DNA of 63,191 nucleotides, counting the filler, from Craspedostauros australis (Eukaryota): the NCBI GenBank assembly GCA_030167865.1. It is 12 parts of 12 records of this genome, joined end to end, with 100 filler letters (N's around TTAATTAATTAA, not from the genome) between each part and the next. Parts side by side here need not be neighbours in the genome. Positions count along the whole stretch, not along the records: positions 1 to 8,323 come from JALAGF010004305.1; 11 more parts are not named here. The stretch is one strand, 5' to 3'. This document shows, in pieces, positions 1-25,563 of this stretch (the stretch's first letter is position 1; the number at the start of each line of letters is the position of its first letter). The notes under the pieces are model-generated. The model had not been told where the DNA came from. It searched no databases and was given only the letters and a program-made list of their open reading frames with translations. A program made the translations under genes and the position numbers.

Positions 1-3000
1 CCGCTCGTTCCGATGAGCTCCAACTCCTCCACGTACTGCTGGAAGCAGGCCTCCCACGCCTGTCCTGACTCCGCACACTGAACCACGTGCACCGCCGTCT
101 CGGATTGCCCACACCATGGACATTGCTCCTCGACCCCGTACTGTTTGAGTTTTGCTCCCACCCCGATGAACCCGGTGGCCATCTTGGACACAAAGACGCG
201 TTGTCGCCAAGACGCCTTGCCTTGCGCCTTGCGGCGCCCTAGACAGGCCGTGGACCCGCGGGCTTGCCTGACCACTCCTAGCTTCCTGCCCCAATAACCT
301 TCTACCGTAGCACCCACGATGTCGTCATGGATGCCCGACGCTGCCCACGAAGACTTGGTGTCCTGTATCCTCAGACTCCATTGAAAGGACCCTTCACCAC
401 GCCACACAGGCTTCGGCTTGCCCACCGAAGCCTCCCAGTATCTCTTGGCCTCTCCGTCGCAGTAGACGTTGAGGAGCGCCCACCGGTCCAACCGCCCTGG
501 TCCATCATCTTGGTGCCCCCGGACCCAGCGGAACCTTACCTCCACTGACAACCGCTCACGCATAGCCTTGATGTGACCGAGCATGTCATAGGACGGCTGG
601 TTTACCTGCGCCACCCCGTCACGACAGTTCTCCATGGCCTTCATCCCGTCGAGACCAACGACCACCGGGCCCTGCCCCAGACTCCCGCCCTTCTCTAGTT
701 CCAGCAGTTCTCGTAGTATCCCAGCCACACCGGCCAACTCACTGCGGTATGCCGACTGCACTGCTGACCCCCCTGGAACCACGTTGCACCCTGTGCTCTG
801 CACGCCGGAGTCCAACACGCTCAGGACGTACGCTGACGTACCAAAGCCCATTTTGAACGACCCATCACTGACGGCCAACACATCGCCTCTTCGCACCGCT
901 GCGCGCAATTCCGAGTCCGTTGCGTCGCCTGATATATGGCCACGCTCCCAACACCGCCCTGAATCGAACGCTACCCTCCTGGGCGTTGAGGGCAACGTTT
1001 CACCCACACGTGGCCGCTCCAATGCCTCGAGCCACACCGCACGATGACCCTCGTTCAGTGGAGAGGTGCGCCGAGCCCTTGCCGGAAGATTCCGTATCGC
1101 CGTGGCCGTAGCCTCAAACTCCGATCGTCGCCCCCGCCTGCCCGGGGGACTTCGCCATACTTGGAAACTCTGACCCACCCGTCGCCATGCCGTGTACTCG
1201 TCGTCAGGATCCCGCCACCACACCCAGCCGTGGTCATCGTGGATCCAAGCTTGCATACGCCGCCGGAGCCTCAGGTGGCGGTCCTCCGTGAAGCCTTCTA
1301 TCCACTCTTGCCACAATAGCCAGTGTCGCCGCGTTAGCCTCCCTGGCATGCGTGGGTGTCCTGCTGACGCTGTGACTCCTCCGTTCTTACCCAGGAACGC
1401 GATCCTCATGACTCTGGTGCCATCCGCCGTCACCATATCCGAAAGTGTCCTGACTTTTAGTAACAAACGACACTCGTTCAGCATCCCTTTTTGCTTGTTG
1501 TTGTACCCCTGGCAGCGCCAACTGTCCAAGAGAAATACGTCTCCCACTCGCTGCTTCCGGACAGATGGCCCCGTCTCTTCAATCGACACGCCAAACTTCT
1601 GTGCGTTCGCCCACACTTGCGTCACCCACGACGCTGTGACGTAGTGACCGCAGGCGGCAAAACTTTGCTTGAACAGAGATCCCCCGCCTGCGGTTTCCAT
1701 CTTTGCTTGCTCTATCGATAGCTCAATCATTCTTCCCGTTATCGACCTTGTGCTGACCTCATGTGCCATGGCTTGGATCTGAGTAGCCAGCTGCCACACC
1801 ATGGGATTTCGCATGCCAATACCCCCATTCGCCCTGGGCCCAAACAGTACCGCACGCGGAAATGTTCGGGCCACACCACCGCGCGGCAGGGCTTTGGACC
1901 ATATTGGTGCGTACACGAAGTCCCACTGACGTTGATTGAGCGTCACAGCCTCCATAGGGTATTCCAGTGTCTTGGTTATCCGCGTGGTGATCGCCATCCA
2001 TACGAGGTCATGCTGCAGCCCACCCGAGACCACCCTGTCTGCGAATTCCTCGGACTTCCGCCGTAGGTAACGGACTTGGGCCTCCGACGTGCCTGTCATG
2101 TTCATAAACACTCCCAAGGTTTGTTCAGACTCGCCGGGATCGAGTCGCCTCAGCTCCCTGCTGACACCGTGTGCGTCGCGTACCTGCACTTGTGCCGGCG
2201 CTGCCCTTGCTGTCTTCATCCTCCATTGCCCGGCTACGTAGTCAAATGACAAGCCCCACCAGAAGCTTTTGGCCGGAACTAAGGCCCCTCCCGTAGACCG
2301 TAGTACCCCTTCCCAATCCTCCAGTGCCTTTTGTGTTCTTTGCGTCACCGTTTCGAAGGACTCACCCGGTCTTGATACCACCAGGTCTGCGTCGTCAACG
2401 AAGCTAAGACCCACCAAGTTCACTTTCTTGTTGCTGAGAACCGAAACGAAGTTCGCCCCATGACGCTGGGCGCGCATGGCCTCGAACATAGGTGAACTGA
2501 TGGCGGCCCAAGCCGCTGGCCCACAGCCGTTGCCCTGGGCTAAGCCCTGCATTGGCACCCATCCCGTGTTTCCGTAGGTCCTGGAGGACACCCCGTATGC
2601 TGTGCGTATGTGATGTTCTGCCTGTTGCAGAGTGCCAAACATGGACTTCACTGCCGATCGCCTTCCGCCTGCATGCACCATGGCCATCGATGCCACACTG
2701 TGAACCACCCTGTCATAGCATGACTTTGCGTCGTTGGAGCATATGGCCCCATTCTGCCGCTTTTGCCTCATGACGTCGACCACCACTCTCTTACACAGAG
2801 CGGCTGTTGACGCCTTGTGGCCTTTACGGCTCCCAAACTGTTCTGTTGCCATTCGGCCGTTGCTTTCAGCTGTCTGCATCAGATCTCTTCCCAGTTTCTT
2901 GTTATTCATGTTGAAGGCGGGGTGGAACAGCTGGATGGTTCGCATCTTCGCGACATCGAACACTCCAGCTTTCTTGAGGATCTGGAAGTCGGTCATCACC

Positions 3001-4970
3001 TTCCACGATGTGGGGGAGAACCCCGTCTCATACGGAATCCTTCGCAGCCGACAGTCGATCGCCGCAAGCCCTTCGTGCTGAGCCGCCGCCTTGAAGTGAC
3101 CAAAGTGGGGGGCCGACGGTTCGGACGATGTTCGTTCCTTCTGTTTTGCCCATCCATCAACGTGGTCTTGCACTGTAAACGAGGTGTTGGGCGTCGCTGA
3201 AGGGGTCGATCCTACTTGCGTCAGCAGCATACGTGGGTACTCGTCCGTCAGTTGCGTGGGCTTCCACTTCCCTTCGCATACTTGGTTGGCGTCTGCGGTG
3301 TCCGCGAGGAAACCAAAGCGACGCCGCAGTTCGCCGGTCATGAATGGGGTACACGATGTTTGGAGGAAGCGTTTCTTGTTCTCCACAATGCACGCCTTTT
3401 CGATGGCGTGCTTCGTATCGCACACTGTCAACTCCCCGTCGTCCCCAGTAACTGTGACCTTTGTGGCTAGCGTTTGCTTGGGCTTGAGGCACGCCTTGAG
3501 ACGCCGGTTGTCTCGAATCTGGCGTTCCCTCATTCTGCGAATATGGCTCGCCGTGTTCTCCAGTGCCGTACCCCACCTTGCTGATTCTTCCACTCCTTTG
3601 TGTAGCATGAAATCGTCCCGCATTTGAGATGCGGTTGGTTTTGCGGCTGCATAGGCCTGCCTGGCGGCATCCATCTTCTCTCTTACTTGCTCCGGGCATA
3701 GCTGGCGTGGCCTGTGGATCCGCAGTCGTTTGGCCAGCCGCTTTATGAGGGACGAGCTGATGTGAATGTTGTTCTGTTTTTTCCATACCGATGTCCAAAG
3801 CCTGACCTCGTCTCTGAGCCGCTTCAGTGTCGGTGACCATTCTAGTGCCCCCATTCTCAGCTTCCTGCATTCCGCCTCTGCTTCTACTCGGAGCTGGTCC
3901 ATCCCCGCATCAATGGCGTTGTACTCCTTGGCCAGCTCTGTGGTGACCCTACCCTGGGTACGGACGGCCTTCTCGAGCTCCTCAATTCTCCAGTGGTACC
4001 CTCTTTGTTGCGCCTTGCACCACAGCGCTTCCTGGTACTTGCCCACCGCCGTTTGGTCCACCATTCGTAGACGTCGTGGCTCCACTCCCACCAGCGGGTT
4101 CAAGATGCCGATGGTGCTTGCCTCTTTGATGTCGGCCCACAGCATCCTGTGGTCGGAGTCAATAGCTTCTCCAAAGCCCAAGTAGCCGGCCTCCATAAGT
4201 TCGACGTCGCTCGTCACGTAAATGCCGTCGATCGGGACATGGTTCCTGTTGCGGTGCTGGGTTGCTTGTCTTTGGAGGTTGGGGTGCATATCCGTGATTG
4301 CCTCACGCATGCCCAGCTCGCTGAACACTTCGGCGCATCTGCCTTCGTTGACATCTTGGTTTGCGTCTATGCCGACTACCACACTATCGCCGTCCTGCTT
4401 CCACTCCCGTATACTCTGCGCGAGGTCGAGCAGCATTGCCTCCCTGGGTTCCCTTGTGTCCCCTCGCCCAAGGAGATAGGTACGCTGCTGGGCCCAAGTG
4501 GAAGTTGGTCGGCTTGATGTGCATGCTCGATAGGCTGCCACCACTCGTATGTGCTTGCCCTTGCGCCCTTCTATCCTCTGCCACACCCATCGTCCCAGGT
4601 TGTCCGGGTCCTCCCCTTCGTCGACCACTCGCTTGGCGAGATATTTTGACGTTGCAATTCCTGTGCCTCCGAACTGCACTTTGTTTGCATGTGGGCTGTT
4701 GCGGTTGTAGGCCGCGCTAGCCTTGGTGTGCCCGCCCCATTTCACTGCTCTTCTGGACCATGAATCCCCGGTCTTCATCGACTTCCAGTTGAGTCCAATT
4801 TCCGCCATCATGAGCACGTGAATGTGTCTTCGTTTTACTTCTTCTCCAATTTGGCCGTTCTTGCGTTTCCATGGTTCCACTGGTAACCTCCCAATGTTTT
4901 GGAACGCGAGCCTGATTGTACCTGCTCGCGGTTGCCTCATTGTGTTGCCGAAAATACCGTCTTCGGGCAT
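1..4970 (-). CDS. LINE ORF2 polyprotein: AP endonuclease, reverse transcriptase, RNase H, CCHC zinc knuckle (>1650 aa, 3'-partial; alternative start ATG 4940)
   Basis: Manual translation. APE: IRLAFQNIG, MAEIGLNW, GIDAN, PIDGIY, SDHRMLWADI (~4150). RT: EQFGSR, SNDAKSCYDRVVH (~2730), QGNGCGP (~2530), SFVDD (~2400). RNase H: AVSDGSF, SAYRSELAG, WVRGHQD (~450-890). Knuckle: CPWCGQSETAVHVVQC (~75-125). Start, FVDD and knuckle share one frame, and the ORF track lists no stop-terminated ORF in it. Confidence 0.93.
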   Translation of the reverse strand, partial: MPEDGIFGNTMRQPRAGTIRLAFQNIGRLPVEPWKRKNGQIGEEVKRRHIHVLMMAEIGLNWKSMKTGDSWSRRAVKWGGHTKASAAYNRNSPHANKVQFGGTGIATSKYLAKRVVDEGEDPDNLGRWVWQRIEGRKGKHIRVVAAYRACTSSRPTSTWAQQRTYLLGRGDTREPREAMLLDLAQSIREWKQDGDSVVVGIDANQDVNEGRCAEVFSELGMREAITDMHPNLQRQATQHRNRNHVPIDGIYVTSDVELMEAGYLGFGEAIDSDHRMLWADIKEASTIGILNPLVGVEPRRLRMVDQTAVGKYQEALWCKAQQRGYHWRIEELEKAVRTQGRVTTELAKEYNAIDAGMDQLRVEAEAECRKLRMGALEWSPTLKRLRDEVRLWTSVWKKQNNIHISSSLIKRLAKRLRIHRPRQLCPEQVREKMDAARQAYAAAKPTASQMRDDFMLHKGVEESARWGTALENTASHIRRMRERQIRDNRRLKACLKPKQTLATKVTVTGDDGELTVCDTKHAIEKACIVENKKRFLQTSCTPFMTGELRRRFGFLADTADANQVCEGKWKPTQLTDEYPRMLLTQVGSTPSATPNTSFTVQDHVDGWAKQKERTSSEPSAPHFGHFKAAAQHEGLAAIDCRLRRIPYETGFSPTSWKVMTDFQILKKAGVFDVAKMRTIQLFHPAFNMNNKKLGRDLMQTAESNGRMATEQFGSRKGHKASTAALCKRVVVDVMRQKRQNGAICSNDAKSCYDRVVHSVASMAMVHAGGRRSAVKSMFGTLQQAEHHIRTAYGVSSRTYGNTGWVPMQGLAQGNGCGPAAWAAISSPMFEAMRAQRHGANFVSVLSNKKVNLVGLSFVDDADLVVSRPGESFETVTQRTQKALEDWEGVLRSTGGALVPAKSFWWGLSFDYVAGQWRMKTARAAPAQVQVRDAHGVSRELRRLDPGESEQTLGVFMNMTGTSEAQVRYLRRKSEEFADRVVSGGLQHDLVWMAITTRITKTLEYPMEAVTLNQRQWDFVYAPIWSKALPRGGVARTFPRAVLFGPRANGGIGMRNPMVWQLATQIQAMAHEVSTRSITGRMIELSIEQAKMETAGGGSLFKQSFAACGHYVTASWVTQVWANAQKFGVSIEETGPSVRKQRVGDVFLLDSWRCQGYNNKQKGMLNECRLLLKVRTLSDMVTADGTRVMRIAFLGKNGGVTASAGHPRMPGRLTRRHWLLWQEWIEGFTEDRHLRLRRRMQAWIHDDHGWVWWRDPDDEYTAWRRVGQSFQVWRSPPGRRGRRSEFEATATAIRNLPARARRTSPLNEGHRAVWLEALERPRVGETLPSTPRRVAFDSGRCWERGHISGDATDSELRAAVRRGDVLAVSDGSFKMGFGTSAYVLSVLDSGVQSTGCNVVPGGSAVQSAYRSELAGVAGILRELLELEKGGSLGQGPVVVGLDGMKAMENCRDGVAQVNQPSYDMLGHIKAMRERLSVEVRFRWVRGHQDDGPGRLDRWALLNVYCDGEAKRYWEASVGKPKPVWRGEGSFQWSLRIQDTKSSWAASGIHDDIVGATVEGYWGRKLGVVRQARGSTACLGRRKAQGKASWRQRVFVSKMATGFIGVGAKLKQYGVEEQCPWCGQSETAVHVVQCAESGQAWEACFQQYVEELELIGTS

Positions 4971-5392
4971 GGTCTGTGTTGTGTTTGTTGATGTTGGGTC
5001 CTTTTCCGTTGGGGCCTGAATGTTGCTGACCTCTGTTTCGCGTGTCTCTTGCCTTGTCCCGTTTGTTCGCCTGTCGTGGCCTTCTCGGGCGGACTGAAAC
5101 GTTGTCGCTCTCTGTTTATTTTTTTCTTGTTAGGTATTTTAACCCTCTGTAACGGTCGATGGTTCTCACGTACGCCGGTCTCCGTTCGTTCCTCGGTGTG
5201 CAAGGTCTCCCTACTTGGCTCCGTGCCTTCCCGTTCGTCCTCCCTTGTCTGAATTTCTTGTTGGCCTTCTTCCTTTGATTGCTGCCTCCCTTTGATTAGT
5301 GGGGTTCCTACCCCATTCGTCCTCCCTCTAACCAGTTGGGTGGATTCCGGTCTTGGTTCACCACCCTTGGTTTGCCCTGAGGGTACCCTCAT
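4937..5392 (-). CDS. LINE inter-ORF small ORF (151 aa, R/K/E/Q-rich, probably disordered)
   Basis: Exactly fills the gap between ORF1b and ORF2, with ATGA overlaps at both ends. No recognisable domain; could be open by chance on this T-poor strand. Confidence 0.45.
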   Translation of the reverse strand: MRVPSGQTKGGEPRPESTQLVRGRTNGVGTPLIKGRQQSKEEGQQEIQTREDEREGTEPSRETLHTEERTETGVRENHRPLQRVKIPNKKKINRERQRFSPPEKATTGEQTGQGKRHAKQRSATFRPQRKRTQHQQTQHRPCPKTVFSATQ

Positions 5393-6057
5393 TCTTGGCC
5401 TGCGATCTTCGAGTCGCTGGCGGTTGAACTGTTTGTGGGTGCAGATAGTTCTGTCTGCTTTGTTGGCCGCACGAGTGGCCTGTTGTCGTCTGTTGCTGGG
5501 ATGTCAGTTCTGGGTCTGGCCTTCTTCATCGGGCTGACCGCGCGCTTCATGGTTGCATCACTATGGTGGCGCTCCTTTACCTTGGAGATACACTCTTCCT
5601 TTTCTTTCTTTTTGGCTTGCGCTCTGGTCCTCATTTTCCTGGTGGTCAGTCGAGGGAACGGGGTCCCTGATTCATCGTCTGACGAAAGGTCGGCCAGGTT
5701 GACCACTTCGGCGGGGGTGACGTTGTTCTGCACCTGATAGGAAGGACCTGATCCCATCGACACGTCGGACATTGACCCGTCGTCCTCAGTTTCCATAAAG
5801 TCCTTGGCTTTGCTCCTGCCCTGCAGTTCCTCAAGTGTCTGGGTGGCCCGGTTGACGTCCTTTCCTTCCGGGGGGTTATCGGTTCCGTCGCTGTTGGGTT
5901 GAGATGCCGCTGTACCTGTCGCGGATTTGGTCTTGCCTGCCGCACCGGGACCAAGAATAGCTTCCATCCATTGGGCCCTGGCCTCCGGGTCGATCACTTC
6001 TAGTTTTTTCATTGCTTCACTCACCACTCTCATTGTCTCTTTTTTGCTTCTGGACAT
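5389..6057 (-). CDS. LINE ORF1b (214-222 aa, low complexity; likely start ATG 6033)
   Basis: Open frame overlapping the ORF1a stop (ATGA at 6033-6030). Helical N-terminus followed by acidic and basic tracts. Confidence 0.6.
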   Translation of the reverse strand: MSRSKKETMRVVSEAMKKLEVIDPEARAQWMEAILGPGAAGKTKSATGTAASQPNSDGTDNPPEGKDVNRATQTLEELQGRSKAKDFMETEDDGSMSDVSMGSGPSYQVQNNVTPAEVVNLADLSSDDESGTPFPRLTTRKMRTRAQAKKKEKEECISKVKERHHSDATMKRAVSPMKKARPRTDIPATDDNRPLVRPTKQTELSAPTNSSTASDSKIAGQE

Positions 6058-8276
6058 TGTGACTTCATTGAAGTGATGGCGGATCTCAGGGACGCGTCAT
6101 CGCAGTTGTGCCACCTTCGCATCACTCCCACGGATCCGTGGTCTCTGTCCATGGTTTTGGGTATGGTACCAAAGTCGATCGCAAAGGTCATCTTGGGCTG
6201 TTTGTTTTCAGGTTCCTCTTTGTCATCTTCTGGGCGTTGCAGTCCCATGCTGGCGTACCATTCGTCGTCCACTTGCTTCTTAAGAATGTCCCGCTCCCAA
6301 TCCGCTTTGATTACCTCGCCGTGCATGTTCATCTTGTAGCTTGTGTTGGCATCCCAGATGTAATCTGTGAACCAGGTGGCTGCTTTGCCGCCACAGTACT
6401 TGTACACCACCGTGGGCAGCAGTGGGATTATCATGCTGGCTTCCTCAGCGACGTCCTGGCTGTACACAAACACTGTGTCGCCCCAGTTCCTGCCGTTCTC
6501 AACGGCCAGGAATAGCGCTGACCCGTCCTTGTCTCCTGAGGTCGACATGAGCTTGGCAAGGACGTTGCGCAGGGATACCTTGTTCTTGGGTTCGACGTAG
6601 TCGAGGCTGTGGATGAAGGAAACGATGGTGGTCTTCGTGTTCTCCAGGAATTCTTTCTGTTTCTTTTTGTACAGCATCGCGTTGCACCTGTCCTCGTGTG
6701 TTGCTGGGCGTTGTTCATCGGTGAGGTCGGATATGAAACGGAGGCGCTTGCCCAAGATCCTGTTCTTGCCTGCCGCAAACAGTTTCCCCATGAGTTGTTC
6801 ACACTTGATGGCATCTTCCTTGCTTGCAAGGATGTGCGCCGCGTAAATCTGGTCCTCTTTCTTCACCTTTTCGTACTTGTCCAGTTTGATTGACTGCATA
6901 CGTATGCCCACCTTGACTTTTGCCTTCACCATATCCTCCAGGTTGTTGATGGCCTCGGTTAAGTCATTACAGTTGGTTGATCTGTGGCTGGCGCAGAACC
7001 ATCCTACTGGCACTTCTTCTCTTGCTTGTACTGTGCACTTGGAAAGTATGATGTCGTTGTCCTGGAGGTGTCCGTCGTCCTGCAGCTCTGCCCACTCCTT
7101 GTTGTGTGAGAAGTAGAACTGGCACCATGTCTGCTTGCCTGCCTTTGTGTACATCTTGTTCACGTAGTTCCTGATTTTGGAAACCGAGGTCACTTTGTCA
7201 CTGTCGGCTGTCAAACCTTGGCCTTGTCCGTCCCATCGGTGTATGATCAGGTCTGGGTCTTGCGTGAATAGGTGCGCCATTAGGGTGGCCATTGCCTCGG
7301 TCACTTCTTTCTCCACGGATTTGTCTTTCCCTTTCAATGTGGGGCTACGGAAGGTGCAGTAGGTGCTGAACTTCCGTCCCAATGCCTCGTTGACGTTGCG
7401 CTTGTGGTCTTTTTTCACCATTGGCTTGCTGAGGAAGAACTGGCTGGCTGGGAGGAGCGTTGGCCCATCTTTGCCTGCTGTAATCGGGGTTGATTTCAGG
7501 GCTTCTGCGAACGTTGGAGAGTTTTTCTTGTATGGGTTTGTGGCCGTGCTCTCTTGCTTCTCCTTACCAGTGGTGTTGATTGGTTGGCGCTGTGTATCCT
7601 TGTCAGGCTTGGGCTGTGACTTTTGCTTTTGCTTTGTTTTGCTTGTTTGTTGGGTTCCTGCTTTGGTTGGCTTCGTAGCGGTCGTTTTCGGCTTGTTGTC
7701 TCCGCTGATTCTGCGTCGCTTCTCCGGTGATTCGGTCGATGTGGTTTTGTTGACTACTCGGGCGGCTATCCAAGGGTTGGTCATGATGCTACCCATGATG
7801 TTCCCTTCTTCCCAGAATACTGGTGGGAACATATCGGCTTTCGTGGCCAGGAGTCGAGCCTCCATCTGTTGCACCTTCTGGTTCGTGGCTGCGTCCCAAT
7901 GGCAGGCTTTCCCTTTCTTGAATACCTCGGTCCATTCCTCCATTGTCTCTAGATCTCCTCTTTCGCATTCGAGGTAGTTGCGGACCACCTTCCATGCTGT
8001 GTTGATAGAGTCTCCTGCTCCCACGCACTCCGGGTACGGCTTGGCGTTGCTCATCTCCATCTTCCTCTTGACTTCCTTCTCTTCCGCTTCCGTCCACGTT
8101 GCCTGCTTTTTGGCGATACCGTCGTTGGGTGTGCCCGAGATTTCAACTCCTCCGAAATTCACTTGTTTCTTCCGCTGTTTGTTGCGGGAGGGGTCACCAT
8201 CGTCGTTCTTTGTCACTGGCGTCATGCTGGTCTTGTAAACGCTCTGCTTCTTTTTAAATTTTATGTGTTTTGTCAT
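6030..8276 (-). CDS. LINE ORF1a (748 aa), gag-like position, K/T-rich linker plus globular core
   Basis: Long ORF upstream of pol on the same strand. The VQA..EVPVGWF..SH-type core resembles ORF1 proteins of diatom LINEs. Confidence 0.8.
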   Translation of the reverse strand: MTKHIKFKKKQSVYKTSMTPVTKNDDGDPSRNKQRKKQVNFGGVEISGTPNDGIAKKQATWTEAEEKEVKRKMEMSNAKPYPECVGAGDSINTAWKVVRNYLECERGDLETMEEWTEVFKKGKACHWDAATNQKVQQMEARLLATKADMFPPVFWEEGNIMGSIMTNPWIAARVVNKTTSTESPEKRRRISGDNKPKTTATKPTKAGTQQTSKTKQKQKSQPKPDKDTQRQPINTTGKEKQESTATNPYKKNSPTFAEALKSTPITAGKDGPTLLPASQFFLSKPMVKKDHKRNVNEALGRKFSTYCTFRSPTLKGKDKSVEKEVTEAMATLMAHLFTQDPDLIIHRWDGQGQGLTADSDKVTSVSKIRNYVNKMYTKAGKQTWCQFYFSHNKEWAELQDDGHLQDNDIILSKCTVQAREEVPVGWFCASHRSTNCNDLTEAINNLEDMVKAKVKVGIRMQSIKLDKYEKVKKEDQIYAAHILASKEDAIKCEQLMGKLFAAGKNRILGKRLRFISDLTDEQRPATHEDRCNAMLYKKKQKEFLENTKTTIVSFIHSLDYVEPKNKVSLRNVLAKLMSTSGDKDGSALFLAVENGRNWGDTVFVYSQDVAEEASMIIPLLPTVVYKYCGGKAATWFTDYIWDANTSYKMNMHGEVIKADWERDILKKQVDDEWYASMGLQRPEDDKEEPENKQPKMTFAIDFGTIPKTMDRDHGSVGVMRRWHNCDDASLRSAITSMKSQCPEAKKRQ

Positions 8277-8323
8277 TGTTGCAACGTACGTTCACGAGTT
8301 CCGAAACCGTTGGCGATAACCGT

Positions 8324-8423
8324 NNNNNNNNNNNNNNNNNNNNNNNNNNNNNNNNNNNNNNNNNNNNTTAATTAATTAANNNNNNNNNNNNNNNNNNNNN
8401 NNNNNNNNNNNNNNNNNNNNNNN
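8324..8423. other. Artificial contig linker (N44-TTAATTAATTAA-N44, stops in all six frames)
   Basis: Identical 100-nt linkers also at 10904-11003, 16346-16445, 25917-26016, 28387-28486, 30104-30203, 42448-42547, 47667-47766, 52886-52985, 57107-57206 and 58975-59074. A plain 120-N scaffold gap lies at 16861-16980. Adjacency across linkers is not biological. Confidence 0.99.
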
Positions 8424-10903: not shown

Positions 10904-11003
10904 NNNNNNNNNNNNNNNNNNNNNNNNNNNNNNNNNNNNNNNNNNNNTTAATTAATTAANNNNNNNNNNNNNNNNNNNNNNNNNNNNNNNNNNNNNNNNN
11001 NNN

Positions 11004-16860: not shown

Positions 16861-19233
16861 NNNNNNNNNNNNNNNNNNNNNNNNNNNNNNNNNNNNNNNN
16901 NNNNNNNNNNNNNNNNNNNNNNNNNNNNNNNNNNNNNNNNNNNNNNNNNNNNNNNNNNNNNNNNNNNNNNNNNNNNNNNNCATCTTTGTGATGTGTTCAG
17001 TTTGTGGAGGCTCAAAACGCCGATTGTTGTTACCAGTGCTAACGTGGGATTAACGCGTTTCAAACGATCGAGTTAGGAGGAAGCAGCCGAAACACCAGCG
17101 TGAATAGATACCTTTTGTATTTTGCACAGAACATCATAGAACATTCCAAAATAAAAGGCGACGTATCGTTGACTTCGACTCATAGGACCACAAAAACATG
17201 AATGATCCATAAAACTTAAAACATAAACTATAGCAATATGGACTTTATTTTTTCGTCATACCGTGATGGTTAGTATTCTTAATTTGTGGGTGGCTTTCCA
17301 TATATCCAGAAAAAGTTGACATGCCTGATTACGGACTGCAGGTCGACTCACTCGAGGGGGTCATATCATATTGCAATACATGCCTGTGGAGTGTAGAGTA
17401 TTCAGAATTCATTGTGGATATGCTCTCTGGGGGGAAGCGTGTGGGAAGCAGAATGCAAGCCAATGAGTATGAGATGAGTACGAACCATTACAGAGTGTCG
17501 CAAGTGAAATAACCATACTCCCTGTGGAGGAGATGTGTGCGCTGATGATCTCCGCATGAACCACGTAACGTGCTGAATGAAGTCAAGTCCGAATTGGAGC
17601 TACACAAGGGACATCCTAGTATCTATTGGGAATACACACGATTATTGTCGAACACACTAAATTTTACAGGAGCCGCGGCATAACAATCAAATATTTTAAT
17701 TGTTGAACAGTAGCGGATGCGATGTGAAAGGAACATCTAAGAAACGGTAATACATGGTACTCATTTTGTCTCTTTTTTAGACATCAGTCTAATTGTTCGC
17801 ATTCTTTTCTGTAATGACCTCGACTTTATCCCCCAACGTAGTCACGGACGGCGCGACTCCACTTAACCACGTTGTTAACGACCATCAAAGAGATCGAAAA
17901 CACGATGAATGCCATAAATAGAAAAGCGTTTCAGGAGTGACATCGAGCTTATTGGAGCCGTGTCATTTTCAGCACCCCAGAAACGTCAATATCTTCCCCA
18001 GGGCCAAGCAGTCTGGGCCATATTTTTTCACCGTATATTAAATAGAGTAGCACTGTTCGTAGCTGCGCGAAGAAATTTCTTTGCGACCGATTCCAACGAC
18101 CATCACCGCGATGGCTGATGCCCAGATCGCATACTTCGTCAACAAGCTCTCCTGTTCAACTCTCACCACGCTTCTGCATCAGACGCCAAGTTGCGTTGTT
18201 GATGGCCGTCTTATAGTACTGCGGTCGCGCAACTTGAAAGCGGATGAGCAGCAACATAGTATCATGTAGTACCTCGTCTTGTGGTTTAGTTCAGTGTAAA
18301 GTCGCTTGGTGTGGTGTTCACGGTTGACTTGCCTGATGGCACTTGGAAGAAGCAGGCACGAGAAAAGGGCGAACGAGGAGGCGAAGGGGCGGTTCGTTGC
18401 AAGAACAACAGCAGCAACAGCAGCTGGATGACGGTGTCAACTCATCGACAATGGCATTCCTGCGACGGCAGCCAGGACTCCAACGCAAGCGACGTCAACC
18501 GAAACGAGCATTGAAGCGCCATCGCAGACATGAGTGTGCGATGAAACTGTCGGCAACACGTTGCCATGGTGTCGGTGCTCGCGTGATGAAGTCGACACCA
18601 GCGAAACGCAAATGCAACCGAATCCATCATCGTTGCCATTGACGATGTCCTTCTTTCGCTTTTTGCTGCTCCAGCGCTGTTCGTCGCAGAACTTTACCTT
18701 GTGAACGGAGTCGTGCGCCATTGCTCGTCTCCGCATTGTTTCGAAGTCTCGTCAACGCAGATCACATGGCATGAGCCGGATGTTGTGGTTGTGTTCACGA
18801 GAGTGTAGCTTCCGGATTGCCATGCGCTATGTTGCTTGAGAAATTCGCTCAGTTCGATAGATCGCCATGGCGCATCAAGAACTTGTGGACACGGAAACGA
18901 AATTGCGTGGAAGGCACAGGATGGCACAGGGAATCGTGTCGTCGATGTCGAGACGAGCCATTCCTTGCCAGAGAAACAACAAGAAGCCAGATGGTGTGCG
19001 ACCTGGTAACTTTCGACGCGCTGCGTTCTGTTCCTGTGCGCGTAGAATCTTTCGTTCAAACTTGTACCAGCATGAAGCATCAGCAAGGAATCAACAGAAG
19101 AACAAGGCAACAGTGTCAACGGCGCAAATGTATCCAACACATCATAATAAAGAAACAGCACCGACAACAGCACCAACAACAACACAAACAACAACACAAG
19201 CACCCTGATTCAACTCACAACCAACGTGCAAAG

Positions 19234-22200
19234 ATGCAACCCAACAACACCCAAGCCGCCGACCCTCGCTCATGGCAACACAACAGAGCGGCGCCGGCAG
19301 CAGCGCCCAACAACGCGGCGAGGGTCCCGTCCTTCGCCGTAGCCTACACCAATCCTCCTGCTGGAGATGCCACCCCTTCGGTGGACGAAACACTGGCGCA
19401 AGCCATGGGACGGCTGTCTGTGCAACAGAAACGGATGTCCGAGCAGGAGATCATGGGCAAACTTGGGGTTCCTCCCGAAAATCCGCAACACATGAACCTC
19501 CTGTCGCAGCAACTGCGTGCACGATTGCTGTCCATCAGGCACAAACCGGCCTTTGACCTTGCTATGCGACAGAATCCTGCCTTCGTGAATAGTCCGCAAT
19601 TCCTTCGCATGTTTTTGCGCGCAGAAAGGAACGATGTCAACCACGCAGCAGACCGACTTGTGCGGCACTTCGAAGGCAAGCGAGAGATCTGGGGTGTTGA
19701 CAAGCTCACCAAGAGGATCACCATGGACGACTTCACTGCAGAAGAGAAACAGTTCTTCACCAAGAGCGGGGGCAGCACCCAAATGTTGCCAATACGGGAT
19801 CATGCGGGAAGGGCCGTATTCTTCTCCCACGAGGGAGAACTCGCTGAAAGCCTCATGGACCAGAACCCTGAGATACACAACGTAAGTTCCGTACTTCTGC
19901 ATCGGTCAATGTCTCCGATGTCCATCGATGGACGATGTCTGTGAAGCTCGTGTGATTAGCTCGTAACAGGTGTTGCAAAAGGACCACGTGCACCCGCCAA
20001 CGCGAAGTCCAGTTGGCATGTATTCTGATATATGCAAGTCAATCCGCTGCTCACCCCATCTTTCCATCACTTCCTCCGACTCTGCTCCAACCCTGTTGCA
20101 TTCGTGCGTACCCTCCTCTCTCCCAATTCCATAGACTCGCTTTCTGTGGTACCTTATCATGGCACACATGGAAGACGATGATGAAACACAGATCAATGGA
20201 ATTGTGTACGTGGGATATGGAGTGGACTCCAAACCCAAAGGAACCAAAGCCGAGCGCGATGTGTGGTGGGCTACATGCAAGGCTCTCAACGCCATGCCCG
20301 TCCGAATTACAGCCTTCCACTACTGCTACCAGGGGGGCCTGATGAAACCGTTGGTCGGCCTCGTGGCGTGGGGCTTGAGTCCCATCACTCGTTGCCGGAT
20401 CCAAGCAGTCTGCGGTAAGTCAATCCACCCATGCATGCCTACATGTATTCATGTATGGATGCTTTAGCGTTCAACCATTCACGTAGAGTTCGAACAGGCA
20501 TCCGTTCGATTGAAGCGCAACCAAGTTCTCATCTTTCTCCACGTTTCAAGTGCACCTTCACTCACTGATCGTTCTGTGTTCGTTCGTGCTGTCCCTGCTG
20601 TTTGCTTTCAAATCAACGTCACATTGCAGGAAACCATGCCACATGCGTCGGTCACTTGAAGACGTTTGGCATCCCCGTGCACGTCCTCCCCCTCGACGAG
20701 GACTACGCCGCATCATTCAAGCAGAGAGGCCAAAGCAAGAAGAAGCACCTTCCCATGAAGCTCAATCGTAAGGAATTCGAGAAGTTCCTGAGGCGCCGCA
20801 AGCAGGTTGAAGGGCATCCGATGGAGTATGCTCGCCGCATCGAGCTGCTGAGACAGACCGACATCATTGTTGGAAAGGGACAGAACCATCAGAAGCATCA
20901 CGGAAACCTCCGATTCGGCAGGCTTGTGACTGAGAGCGTGACAAGATTGGGCGCGGGGCGAAGCAACAAGGAGAAGGCTGATATTGGCATGAAGGTAGCC
21001 ATTCAGGTGAGACAGAACGGCATCCGATTCGTCCAACAGGTGGAAAAGTGTGGGATCTGGCGGCTTGCCAACTGGCAAGCAGTCGAGAACAAAGTTCGGA
21101 ATCTTACAAATCGCATCAAGATCAAGGCCAACAAGAACGAGGGCGAGGGCAAAGAGGAGGATGGTTCAACTAGCGTTGCTTCCAAGAGAGCGAGAAGCAT
21201 GCCACCACATCCTGGCTCATCACCAACTGCAGACAATCTTGAGACTGCCGGCATGCCCGTTGCCAACGAGGACGAAGATGAGGATGACGGCGACGAAGGG
21301 CGCGTCGCCACCACGAGCAGCCACCAAACCAGTGCGGGCGGCGACCAAGATGCCAAACCAGCCGCCAAACGAAGAGCGACACCGGCAAGCGCACCCGCAA
21401 CAGTTCCGGCTCCCGCTGTATCGTCGCCAGCGATGCAAGCAGGAGCCGTTGACGATGACGAAGTGCAAGTAGTCCAAGTCACCCGGGCTCCGACTTCCAT
21501 GCAGCTCACTACTTCTGCTGCCGGTGCCATTGCCCCACAAGCACAGACTCTAACGCCATACGGAGCTGTGCCTTCTCCCAACTTCCCCCAATATCCGGCT
21601 CATCCGCGAGCTCCAACCTTTGCCGCCTACCAACAAGCGGCAATCCAAAGAAGAGGCGTGCAGATGGGTCAGGCTGGAATGCCAGCAGGCATCGCCCCCA
21701 ACGCCCCGCAGCCACCACAGAACCTGCAAGCACAACAGGCGAGACCCAACCAACAGGCGTTTGGTCAGCCCCAGCAGCTCCTGGCAGGTCCAGCCAGTGG
21801 CCTCCCGAATTTCACCATGCCTCAGAACCTTGGCTTTCAGGGCACTGGTGCCGTGCCGTTCCAGAGTAGTGTCGCGGGAGCGAACATGGTCGGTGGAATG
21901 CCGGTGCCAACCAATCTATATGCAGCTTCGGCCGCGCAACCGAATCTGACCGCAACCGTTGCTCCCAATACCGTCATGATGCCAGCAAATGCTGGGACCG
22001 TTCCCAACCTCATGACAGGAGGTGTTGGTGGAGCGACAGCATTCAACCAAGGTACACCAAACATGCAGCTCCCACGGAATCTCACACCAAATCCCACCCA
22101 AAACTTCACGCAGAACATGCAAGTGCCCATGACATCCGCACAGGCGCAAACGCCGACAATGGTCGCCGAGCAGATGGGCATGCGAATGGGAAGGCAGCTG

Positions 22201-22998
22201 GCCTTGGAGATGGCTATGGAACGGGGAGTGCGGATGGGATTCAACCAAGCGATGGCGCAAGGAACCATGCCGAACGCAAACATGGCGAACGCGAGCACGA
22301 TGCATACTCCGACCATGCCTCCACAAGGAATGATGCCAGCCCCAGATGCGAACGCGAATGCTGCTCCCACGACTCACTTGTCGAACCAACAGCCACCAAT
22401 AACTGGCAGTAGTGGAGCACCGAGCGATTCTTCAACCACCCACGGACTTCAGCCAGCGTCCACTGCACCGGGCCAACCGCAAGCAGCGGCGGCCAACCAG
22501 CCAAAGACGGCGGCTCCAACCGCACCAGAACCTCCCGCTGTCGCGCCATCCGAAGACACCCCCGAGATCACGGAACGAGAGACGGACATTTTGTTCGGCA
22601 GGAGCAGAACCTTTCACAAGCATTCGGGTAACATATACATGCACTCTCTTGTGACTGAGCGCAAGCACCTCTTCGAGGCCGCAGCTAGAACCGAACGAAG
22701 ACAATTCATCGCGGGCGTGGTGGATGAATTGGTGGCCGAGGGGAGACGATTCCTGACAAGGCATACGAAGGGCACCGACGGGACTTGGATCTGGGTCGAG
22801 GTTTCCAAGGAGAGGGCGGCCGAGAAGCTGGGGCACGCCTTCCGCGATAAACGGAAGGTGGCCGAGAAGAAGGAGAAGGGTGGAAAGGCTTCCAAAGCCG
22901 GCGATGAAGACTCGCAGGCTGGAGCATCATCCAGCGGCAAGCAGATCTCAGAAGAAGCCGCTGCTGTCGAAGGCCTGGTCAACCTTAGAATGAAGTGA
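19234..22998 (+). CDS. CRAL-TRIO-like domain plus two DUF6824 domains; 3 exons (19234-19881, 20135-20414, 20630-22998), ~1098 aa
   Basis: GTAAGT donors at 19882 and 20415 and AG acceptors keep the frame. FLRMFLRAE..AADRLVRHFEGK, RDHAGRAV, ETQINGIV, LKTFGIP. DUF6824 motifs DIIVGKG..HHGN and DILFGR..HSGN...EKLGHAFRD. Confidence 0.88.
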
Positions 22999-23619: not shown

Positions 23620-25142
23620 AACATAATAATAAGAATAACTCACAATGACTATACCCCGAAAGGGAATGCCCTGAGGGCTTTAAGCTCGCCCGCCGGCGCC
23701 ATGAAGGCAAACGCAGGGTCGAGCATATCACAAACATGGACTATCGGAACCAGCCACCAGCGCCCCAGCCCGCGAGGCCAGCCAAGCGCCGCCACGCCGT
23801 ACCCCACACACGGGCTGCCGCAGGCGGCCCGTGTGTGGGTTAATCTGGTTCCACGCCCCTACCGACCGCACAAGAGGCCAAAGACCCCTGGGCCGCACCA
23901 ATCGTCATCACCTCACCCGGCCGCATTGTTGCCTTGCACCTCTCCGTCTCCTTCACATGCCGTCCCAGCCGCTCTCGCACCATCGGCTTGACCTGCTCGG
24001 TGGATCCTGACTCCGCGAACAAACCGCAGCCACGCCTCACGCTTGCCAGGGCACTGGGCATCAGCCCCCGTCCCCAGACTACGCTCGGCAACCGCCTTGT
24101 CACAAGGTACCCAGCCACCAAAGCCCACTTGTCTCTGCGCGGCCTCTTCGTCTTCAGCACGACGCGCCTATTCCTCGGCCCGCGCAGCCTCGGCTCTGCA
24201 TTTGGCCCGGTTGCGGTGCTTCCAGACACCATGGACAGATCACCTCCCTGCCAGTACCATGTCACATGCCCATGCCTCGACTGTATAGTAATGCCCACGC
24301 AACCCGTTCTCCTCGAACCACTGTTGCTGTTGTGAACCCCAATCCGGTGGCAACCACCCCATGAGCACCGTCCACCATGCCGTCTCTGCTGTCTGCCAGA
24401 AATCATGCCTTGCAGCCCGACCGCAGAAACGGCGTAGGCCGTTGTAAATGAAACTGACCAACGGCCCACAAGTCCCGATTAACTCGATCTCGTCCATGTA
24501 CGCCTCAAAGCACGCGTCCCAGCCAGCACCTGACGCTGGACACTGCACCACATGCCTGGTGGTCTCGGTACCGCCACACCACAGGCACGGTTCTTCCGAG
24601 CCGTACTGCCGCAACTTAGCTCCCACCCCTATAAATCCGGTAGCCATCTTAGCGACAAAAACTCGCTGTGACCACGATGCCTTCCGATGCGCGCTCCACT
24701 TGCCCTGACACACCACTGACGCTTCCGCAGGCGCCCTGTGACCCATTTTCTCGGCCCAGTAGCTCCCAATGACCCGCCCTGTAATGTAGGTATGGATACC
24801 CACGGCCCCCCATGAGGACCAGCGCTCTCCCAGCGACAGCGTCCACCGGAACCGGCCGTCCCCTTGCCAGGGCGGCACCGGCCTGTCCCGCCTGGACACC
24901 CAAAACTTCTTGGCCTCCGTATCACAGTGCACATTAATTCTTGCCCATACGTCCAGATGGGCCCCGTGGTCATCCTGGTGCCCTTTCACCCACCGAAACC
25001 TCACCTCCACCTTCAACCGCTCCCGCAAGGCCTGGATATGATCGCGCAGGTCGAATGAGGGGTGGTGAACACAAGCGCCCCCGTCCCGGCAGTTCTCCAT
25101 GGCTCTCATGTCATCCAGTCCAATAACCACTGGCCCCGGGCC
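23620..25142 (-). mobile_element. Decayed 3' portion of a related Ambal-like LINE (RNase H end, CCHC, C-terminus, 3' UTR, TTA-rich tail)
   Basis: GPVVIGLDDMRAMENCRDG...WVKGHQDD...CLWCGGTETTRHVVQC aligns with ORF2 at ~1-680. In-frame TGA (24242-24240) and TAG (24170-24168) flank the VWKHRN motif. The frame continues to 23913. Confidence 0.88.
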
Positions 25143-25563
25143 TGTTGGCAAGTTCCGTGATTGGTAGCCTACAATCGTGGAGGGTGGTGTTGGTTGATAG
25201 TCGTTCGTTTGCTATTTCATTACTTGGCTACTCTGATCCTCTCGGTGTACGCCGTTCTCTTGCCCGATGCTCTCGGCGCTTCAATCTGTCTTGTAGATTC
25301 GATCGTCCGACTATGAGTCGGTACGCAAGATGCTCTCTTGCTCCTCTCTGTATTCTCTCTCTCTCTCTCTCAATATCGTGTGTTCGTGCTACACGATACT
25401 CCGTGTTGATGCGTACTCCACATTCGACACTCCGTTCATTCAGTACTGGCTCCTACTCCATGAGTACTTACCATTTGAAGTTCACCTTCAGTATCCATGA
25501 TGTTGATCCTCTTCGGTCATCGGATCTTCGCCTTCTGCTCTGACTTGGAGACAGATGTCAACG
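25143..25563 (+). mobile_element. Putative LTR of an LTR retrotransposon inserted into the LINE, followed by a PBS-like TGGTGACAC
   Basis: Begins TGTTGGCA exactly where LINE homology stops and ends TGTCAACG (imperfect inverted terminus), followed immediately by TGG. No gag/pol within the contig. Confidence 0.45.

Follow-up and report, generated by a model that had tools for sequence, protein, structure and literature searches.

Is a long interspersed nuclear element (LINE) whose four open reading frames (ORFs) are chained by three overlapping stop and start codons translated by a relay of restarts, or is it an ordinary two-ORF element with broken frames? This question was raised by a LINE-like element of Craspedostauros australis (GenBank assembly GCA_030167865.1). 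The element occupies the minus strand of the first contig (JALAGF010004305.1, positions 1-8323) of the 63,191-nucleotide (nt) stretch analyzed here, which is referred to as the window, and it is cut at both ends. A preliminary description of the element proposed a four-cistron LINE in which a three-step reinitiation relay progressively lowers the dosage of the reverse transcriptase. In this study, we found that only the middle overlap resembles the ORF1/ORF2 junction of related LINEs. We consider it somewhat better than an even chance that the element is a two-ORF LINE with one family-type, hairpin-flanked AUGA junction and two -1 frame breaks, probably at A-runs.

Four ORFs and Three ATGA Overlaps on One Strand

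An ORF and context scan found the four ORFs and the three ATGA overlaps exactly as first described. ORF1a (8276..6030, minus) encodes 748 amino acids (aa). ORF1b runs on the same strand from the ATG at 6033, or from another ATG at 6057, to 5389, in a frame that is open from 6096. The third ORF, of 151 aa (5392..4937, minus), lies in a frame open from 5503, and its 3' part overlaps the ORF2 frame. ORF2 has an ATG at 4940 and another at 4970 and runs on the minus strand to position 3. The second upstream ATGs of ORF1b (6057) and ORF2 (4970) therefore exist as reported. At the first overlap, J1 (6033-6030, minus; context ACA-ATGA-GAG), the stop of ORF1a lies over an in-frame ATG of ORF1b. At the second, J2 (5392-5389, minus; AGA-ATGA-GGG), the stop of ORF1b lies over the ATG of the 151-aa ORF. 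At the third, J3 (4940-4937, minus; ACA-ATGA-GGC), the stop of the 151-aa ORF lies over a Met codon of ORF2, eight residues before the peptide IRLAFQN. All three ATGA junctions have A at -3. Every junction step is a change to the -1 frame, and ORF2 returns to the frame of ORF1a.

ORF2 (3..4970, minus; 1656 aa from ATG 4970, open at the contig end) has the order reverse transcriptase (RT), RNase H and Zn knuckle, preceded by a putative apurinic/apyrimidinic endonuclease (APE). Its reverse transcriptase domain matched Pfam RVT_1 (E 4.9e-8, residues 667-886), and no other Pfam domain was found in the element. No Pfam match to an APE-type endonuclease was obtained in this ORF2 at E <= 0.1; its N-terminal region aligns with relatives that carry PF03372. 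Identity of ORF2 to ten relatives in alignment A1 was 28-36%. Invariant in the ORF2 alignment are the FVDD motif and, in addition, N25, E57, D202, N204, D273 and H274, six residues that we take to be catalytic. ORF1 lies upstream of ORF2 on the same strand, as expected of a LINE.

The strand on which these ORFs lie is T-poor (T 9.6%-17%, by segment), as had been cautioned. Among the 176 stop triplets on this strand, counted in any frame, 41 are ATGA (23%), and the share in first-order Markov sequences is 17.6%. Because nearly a quarter of the stop triplets are ATGA, an ATGA overlap alone is weak evidence. From these shares, p was ~0.005-0.012 for three of three and ~0.03-0.05 for two of two. 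A frame as long as ORF1b (214 codons) was open in 38/20000 Markov sequences, which is far beyond chance. A frame as long as the 151-aa ORF was open in 529/20000, which is marginally unusual.

Codon-usage log-likelihood ratios (LLRs) were computed with stop codons excluded, and two values were obtained for each region. ORF1b scored +40.9 and +42.2 in its own frame over 213 codons, comparable to control stretches of ORF1a and ORF2. ORF1b is clearly coding. The 151-aa ORF showed no codon-usage signal (LLR -5.3 and +3.2), in a test that is weak for ORF2 N-terminal extensions, since it was null or negative in 3 of 11 genuine extensions of relatives and wrong frames reach +12. The earlier statement that no nucleotide of the element is non-coding holds for the tiling of the ORFs and is less certain for actual coding.

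Relatives of the Element Carry Two ORFs Joined by Stop-Start Overlaps

Relatives were collected from metagenomes and protein databases. The metagenome contig scan gave 343 stretches encoding relatives, and 80 loci (numbered with the prefix L) were retained. Their ORF2 was at most 46% identical to that of the window. A protein search with ORF2 gave 70 proteins. The best reached 40-41% identity, and the full-length ones were mostly ~1850-1980 aa; a distant match (26% identical) came from the diatom Mediolabrus comicus. A copy of the element more than 46% identical in ORF2 was not found in the ORF2 protein search, the metagenome loci, genome_contigs or viral_contigs, and the 22-nt junction word had no match in viral_contigs. 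The genome_contigs scan gave eight further loci (L081-L088), distant relatives at most 35% identical, on contigs that are assigned to bacterial metagenome-assembled genomes (MAGs) of Alphaproteobacteria, Chitinophagales, Acidimicrobiales, Nitrospirae and others. Their presence in bacterial MAGs is most simply explained by contamination of the bins.

The family ORF1 is ~800-1120 codons long. No relative with more than two ORFs was found among the 80 loci. In 31 of the 58 loci whose junctions were tabulated, the ORF1 stop has an ATG of the ORF2 frame no more than 8 nt away. The forms of these ATG junctions are TAATG, ATGA, ATGnnTAG and a stop followed after 2-5 nt by ATG. L072 has a further form, ATGnnTAA, in which the ORF2 ATG lies 5 nt before the ORF1 stop. 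Other loci have a different codon at the junction. Four (L026, L030, L031 and L079) have CTGA where their sister L035 has ATGA, and these CTGA loci keep a conserved N-terminal peptide ~58 codons ahead of the first in-frame ATG. An ungapped codon comparison between L035 and L030 was discarded, since indels make it invalid. Twelve loci (within L051-L065, and L077) have the form GTGnnTAA, in which GTG precedes the ORF1 stop by 5 nt. All 9 aligned sequences keep this GTG, although the surrounding ORF1 codons vary. When ATG, CTG and GTG are taken together, the stop and the start overlap or abut in 48/58 loci, a count of loci, many of them near-identical copies, and not of independent lineages; the other 10 are broken or unclear. 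Because some junctions use CUG or GUG, gene callers that accept only AUG misplace the ORF2 start of this family. The database protein P0012, from relatives of the GTG/CTG type, starts at a later Met which the junction reading puts inside ORF2.

Predicted Hairpins Flank the Family Junction

We examined predicted RNA structure on both sides of the family junction. The stability of each segment was ranked against all segments of the same size in the same element, and all RNA structures given here are predictions. Upstream, a 40-nt segment whose end lies 5 nt ahead of the ORF1 stop fell among the most stable 5% in 26/34 non-redundant loci and among the most stable 10% in 31/34, with a median rank of 0.006. 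The arms of this upstream hairpin differ wholly between subfamilies, and its distance to the stop is kept. Downstream, the segment at +6..+66 was in the top 5% of stability in 21/35 loci and in the top 10% in 29/35.

In the GTG subfamily, the predicted downstream hairpin was 93.6% paired, compared with 26-44% in slid controls. Four of its 11 pairs change on both sides, and its covariation score was reached by 0/500 shuffles. Across L051-L065 and L072, the downstream hairpin (+3 to +50 after the ORF1 stop) has an invariant loop, GA.GGCACGGC, and its arms change compensatingly. Because the conserved 'HGV' at the ORF2 N-terminus is encoded in this loop, the conservation of the peptide may reflect an RNA constraint. 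The motif TGGGA, the mark of a termination upstream ribosomal binding site (TURBS), was absent (0 occurrences) from the 100-nt stretches ahead of the junctions in 45 relatives, and its frequency elsewhere in ORF1 was 1.52 per kb. Because the overlap is conserved and predicted hairpins flank the junction, we infer that the family uses termination-reinitiation there. This reading of the sequences is well founded, and it is not a measurement.

The Middle Overlap Matches the Family Junction

By comparison of junction sequences, J2 is the only ATGA of the element that matches the stop-start junction between ORF1 and ORF2 in the family. The window's ORF1b ends in ...ASDSKIAGQE* and the ORF1 of L072 in ...ASDLDQAAGQDE*. 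A pattern derived only from L072 (a block of 9 nt, a gap of 5-15 nt and a block of 11 nt) had one match in the 63-kb window. This match lies at 5421-5393 and abuts the ATGA of J2. The pattern matched 0/100 shuffles, and among the 80 loci it was found only in L072. The longest word in common with relatives' junctions was 12 nt at J2 and 7-8 nt at J1 and J3, and 21 of 1143 positions reached 12 nt in the null for this comparison.

A looser, degenerate pattern of the hairpin arms had been used before and was replaced. It was partly shaped on the window and also matched an unrelated site at 22897. It occurred in 12 loci, always beginning 36 nt before the ORF1 stop, and in the window it begins 30 nt before. 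Because the looser pattern was partly shaped on the window, the identification of J2 rests on the L072 pattern.

J2 is also flanked by predicted hairpins. The upstream hairpin, GCC.GCGA / TCGC.GGC (5398..5421, minus), ends 6 nt before the ORF1b stop and has the same arms as the junction hairpin of L072, A-A mismatch included. Its stability is modest (-9.7 kcal/mol, rank fraction 0.10-0.23). The downstream hairpin (5330..5372, minus) lies in a +6..+66 segment of -19.8 kcal/mol, which ranked at 0.097 across the whole element and at 0.034 within 8200-4900. These results show that J2 corresponds to the ORF1/ORF2 junction of the family.

The First Overlap Follows an A-Run in ORF1

ORF1a is the body of a LINE ORF1 and carries the conserved domain of the family. 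It matched a profile of the ORF1 of 14 relatives (E 6.1e-84, profile positions 167-808 of 907) and was 22-29% identical to relatives' ORF1 by tblastn. A word search with ORF1a gave no match. The tail after the conserved domain is 110 aa in ORF1a versus 148-254 aa in the 14 relatives, and the ORF1a stop lies ~27 aa past an 'SVG' motif.

The frames of ORF1a and ORF1b are both open only in 6096-6030 (67 nt). An A6 run (6045-6040, minus) lies within this double-open zone, 6 nt before J1. No hairpin was found at J1 (rank fractions 0.84-0.91 and 0.79-0.89 on the two sides), and no similarity of J1 to the relatives' junctions was detected. J1 is thus likely a frame break with the A6 run as its site, and ORF1b most likely represents the C-terminal end of ORF1, shifted to the -1 frame.

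A search of 1.84 billion representative proteins gave 0 homologues of ORF1b, and tblastn against the 80 loci (E <= 0.01) likewise gave none. In a helix-motif matrix, the best position in ORF1b coincided with the one picked by eye, yet 1556/5000 shuffles scored as well. Four short motifs tested for homology of ORF1b and the 151-aa ORF were non-significant. The by-eye matches QHQQTQ, RTNGVGT and TNGTRQETR were dropped as evidence, as the homology tests were non-significant. Because the protein homology tests of ORF1b and the 151-aa ORF were all non-significant, we can only infer the exact break points.

The structure of the conserved part of ORF1a was also predicted. Residues 300-650 (6327-7379, minus) gave a mean predicted local distance difference test (pLDDT) score of 81, with alternating strands and helices. 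A Foldseek search with this part gave no match at E <= 0.001. Weaker rows (best E 1.6e-3) were proteins containing ACT domains and RNA recognition motifs (RRMs), including Prp24 and SFPQ/NONO, and this hints that the conserved part of ORF1 may contain RNA-binding modules.

The Third Overlap Probably Lies inside ORF2

The peptide F-G-N (4952-4944) is encoded upstream of the J3 ATG. It belongs to the motif F-G-[DN] of the ORF2 alignment, in which the Gly is nearly invariant. Six relatives have a Met at the position of ATG 4940, as G[DH]xM or ADxM. Because of the upstream F-G-[DN] and the relatives' internal Met, ATG 4940 looks internal to ORF2.

The ORF2 frame is open from 5129, and this point adjoins an A7 run (5125-5119, minus), the longest homopolymer of the element and a candidate site of a second break. 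A second break must fall within ~5129-4955. In 5129-4940, the LLR was +5.1 and +9.4 for the ORF2 frame versus -5.3 and +2.2 for the frame of the 151-aa ORF, and codon usage favors the ORF2 frame from ~5070 onward. The J3 region had nothing in common with the relatives' junctions. J3 is most likely a frame break, and the start of the 151-aa ORF is most likely the family ORF2 start.

No homologue of the 151-aa ORF was found among proteins of similar length, up to 265 aa, and tblastn against the 80 loci (E <= 0.01) gave no match. In a weak self-comparison, no tandem repeat was found in 5500-4850; short dispersed repeats only were present. Two pairs of short direct repeats lie in the region of the 151-aa ORF, at 5230-5245/5312-5327 (82 nt apart) and at 5019-5038/5098-5117 (79 nt apart). 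Translated in two different frames, the copies of the second pair give a similar peptide, KQRxxTF. Both pairs are too weak to indicate a duplication.

Frame Breaks in a Two-ORF Element and the Alternatives

The frequency of frame breaks in the family was also determined. ORF1 is broken in 8/33 relatives with enough upstream sequence, ORF2 in 7/36, and either ORF in 14/36. Six pairs of copies were compared. One pair had no gaps, and two pairs at ~91-93% identity had many gaps of mixed length. In the three gapped pairs at 98.8-99.8% identity, many gaps were 1-nt insertions or deletions (indels) that fall at short runs of one base. Over 6.2 kb, exactly two such indels separate L007 from L008, and each breaks one ORF in one copy. 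The L007/L008 pair and the rates of broken ORFs indicate that it is ordinary in this family for a copy to be open apart from two 1-nt breaks. The element of the window has eight homopolymers of 6 nt or more in 8323 nt, and two of the eight fall in the break zones of J1 and J3. The J2 zone has no homopolymer of 4 nt or more.

The explanation that we favor is as follows. The contig would be a young copy of an APE-type LINE whose family normally has two ORFs. Ribosomes finishing ORF1 would restart on ORF2 by termination-reinitiation at UAAUG, AUGA, AUGnnUAG, CUGA or GUGnnUAA, and J2 would be the restart junction of the window copy. A first break inside ORF1 (6096-6030) would have split off the tail as ORF1b, and a second inside the N-terminal extension of ORF2 (5129-4955) would have made a separate 151-aa ORF out of the beginning of ORF2. 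Beyond each break, the old frame would stay open as far as its first stop, and on this A-rich, T-poor strand roughly one stop in four is an ATGA. The A6 and A7 runs would be the most likely break sites, and the breaks may be genuine 1-nt indels in a dead copy or else assembly errors in homopolymers. The relay of the preliminary description would accordingly be kept at J2, with its family junction and hairpins, but not at J1, which lacks junction features and follows the A6 run, nor at J3, which falls on an internal Met. The three-step relay was not supported: the relatives all have two ORFs, and the 151-aa ORF showed neither a codon-usage signal nor a homologue among the 80 loci and the proteins of similar length.

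Several results weigh against this explanation. A profile of the relatives' ORF1 tail had no significant match in any of the three frames, and profiles of the ORF2 N-terminal extension showed no significant homology of the 151-aa ORF. The implied ORF2 extension is ~145 aa, compared with ~28-90 aa in the relatives listed. Two ATGAs would have to arise by chance (jointly p ~0.03-0.05), and the 151-aa frame, if non-coding, would be open by chance at p 0.026. The J2 hairpins are only modestly stable, and a covariance model of the upstream hairpin of the GTG subfamily missed J2, as it did J1 and J3 (best E 1.2, elsewhere). The downstream hairpin at J3, described below, is not predicted by frame breaks and is lineage-specific. 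The remaining ~2760 codons of the element have no in-frame stop, which is unusual for a decayed copy and is compatible with assembly errors or a very young copy. Because no close copy was found, the choice between break and design rests on distant relatives and base rates.

The main alternative is that the copy is intact and is to be read as written. At least J2 and J3, and possibly all three overlaps, would then serve as restart sites, and the element would be a three- or four-cistron LINE driven by restarts in series, with the basic N-terminal extension, fused to ORF2 in the relatives, made as a separate small protein. We regard this as unlikely. A related reading, which we rate slightly lower, is a three-cistron element. 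Here J1 would be a break or an error, J2 and J3 would restart, and the 151-aa basic protein would be the former ORF2 N-terminal extension, made separately. ORF2 would restart at AUG 4970 or 4940 after termination at the UGA at 4939-4937, and use of the AUG 30 nt upstream of the stop would keep F-G-N in ORF2. A 7-bp GC hairpin, CGCGAGC...GCUCGCG (4905..4930, minus), is predicted to begin 7 nt after J3, and because of it the three-cistron reading stays alive. It has a z of -3.22, 1/200 shuffles were as stable, and it ranks at 0.016-0.052. The equivalent region is structured (z <= -2) in only 1/26 relatives. According to passages of two reviews, the retrotransposon SART1 requires downstream structure (PMC5972666, PMC10275272). 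Six junction sides were tested, however, so that one rank of 0.02-0.05 is near chance. A 9-bp hairpin upstream of J3 ends 6 nt before the stop, spaced as at J2, but it is weak and its rank (0.28-0.46) is unremarkable. The 151-aa frame is open beyond expectation (529/20000), but this ORF has no codon signal or homologue, ATG 4940 stands at an internal Met position, a third ORF occurs in no relative, and J3 shares nothing with their junctions.

Another possibility is that ORF1 ends at 5389 and that 5388-4971 is a T-poor, purine-rich non-coding spacer, open by chance. As in proposals for mammalian L1, ribosomes would then reach the ORF2 start at AUG 4970 through scanning, reinitiation or internal entry. 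In 5392-5130 a codon signal is absent from every frame, the T content is 9.6%, and most non-LTR (long terminal repeat) elements have an intergenic spacer, as stated in a passage of PMC3894237. We find a spacer improbable nonetheless. J2 is the point at which the relatives' ORF2 starts, the 151 open codons have p 0.026, the codon test is weak in just such extensions (null or negative in 3/11), and the ORF2 frame looks coding upstream of 4970.

Recoding is about as improbable, and in our estimate slightly more so. Frameshifting to -1 or polymerase slippage at A_AAA_AAG (6045-6039) and at A7 would yield an ORF1a-1b fusion and a full-length ORF2. The heptamer A_AAA_AAG (6045-6039, minus) overlaps the A6 run, is a canonical X_XXY_YYZ sequence in ORF1a phase and lies inside the double-open zone. 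Both frame switches are -1, and each zone has one of the few long A-runs. No stable structure was predicted downstream of the heptamer, however (z +1.14 for 6038-5950 and +1.55 for 6045-5960), and no in-phase heptamer was found in the J2 or J3 zones. A6 and A7 are short runs for polymerase slippage, and the ORF1 of intact relatives needs no recoding. The gag of HeT-A, a telomeric non-LTR element of Drosophila, is described in a passage of PMC5009743 as needing a frameshift, and the two elements are alike in a frame change inside an ORF1-like gene. They differ in that the window's intact relatives have a single-frame ORF1 and that no stimulatory structure lies at the window heptamer.

The full relay, in which all three ATGAs reinitiate and four cistrons are made with stepwise lower output, is very improbable: its ATGA overlap at each of three junctions, every one with A at -3 (joint chance ~0.005-0.012), its four frames open end to end, its coding ORF1b and the family's use of stop-start coupling are set against a J1 that lacks every family junction feature and stands 6 nt after A6, an ORF1a that alone would have the shortest ORF1 tail in the family, a split seen only in evidently broken relatives, and the same counter-points at J3 as in the three-cistron case.

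Comparison with Known Stop-Start Systems

The synthesis of the second protein of LINEs is still poorly understood. In SART1 of Bombyx mori, ORF1 and ORF2 are translationally coupled through UAAUG (Kojima et al. 2005, as cited in passages of PMC5972666, PMC3894237 and PMC10275272). As far as these passages go, SART1 and the window element are alike in being LINEs in which the ORF1 stop overlaps the ORF2 start, with no intergenic spacer and with RNA structure near the junction, predicted in the case of the window element. UAAUG itself recurs in one subfamily of the relatives. The window junction differs in being AUGA, some relatives have CUG or GUG, and the system of the window is known from sequence alone. 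A further difference is that the structure required in SART1 is described there as downstream only, whereas hairpins are predicted on both sides in the window family. Two reviews, from 2017 (PMC5972666) and 2023 (PMC10275272), name SART1 as the stop-start-coupled retrotransposon. A limited check of the literature, which covered passages of these two reviews, gave only SART1 and mammalian L1 among retrotransposons.

Viral systems offer further comparisons. The victorivirus HvV190S is described in passages of PMC6631646 as stopping and restarting at AUGA, with an H-type pseudoknot immediately upstream. The family resembles it in the AUGA (or UAAUG) overlap, in a structure (predicted in the family) a few nt upstream and in an upstream protein end rich in Ala, Gly and Pro. 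HvV190S differs in being a double-stranded RNA virus; the window family has simple hairpins, which are predicted only, and the window's own upstream hairpin is weak. Calicivirus and influenza B use TURBS-dependent termination-reinitiation, according to passages of PMC5972666. In these viruses, too, the stop and the start are close, and an upstream cis element is required, but the UGGGA of motif 1 is absent upstream of the relatives' junctions. The same source describes unconventional reinitiation of mammalian LINE-1 ORF2 across a 63-nt spacer (PMC5972666). As presented there, LINE-1 is likewise a bicistronic LINE RNA with ORF2 made at a low level after ORF1, and it differs in having a spacer and no overlap.

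The main value of the locus may lie less in the four-ORF copy than in the family to which it led. This family is widespread, mostly in marine metagenomes, and has interchangeable overlap forms, including putative CUG and GUG restart codons. Its predicted hairpins bracket the overlap, change in sequence and keep their place. The family would thus allow the requirements of a restart site to be tested on naturally occurring variants. The locus also gives a caution for genome scans, as roughly a quarter of the frame breaks on a T-poor strand mimic stop-start overlaps.

Other Features of the Window

The window consists of at least 12 contigs joined by N44-TTAATTAATTAA-N44 spacers (8324-8423, 10904-11003 and nine more sites), and a run of 120 N lies at 16861-16980. 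An Rfam scan of the window gave no match. A second fragment of a related LINE was found at 24240-25151 (minus). It has 58% protein identity to the C-terminal 225 aa of the window ORF2 (tblastn, 25142-24468), and its upstream part was not detected, as expected of a 5'-truncated insertion. A 798-aa ORF at 20602-22998 (plus) is rich in Q, P and A and has no similarity to the LINE; it contains the chance match to the looser arm pattern at 22897.

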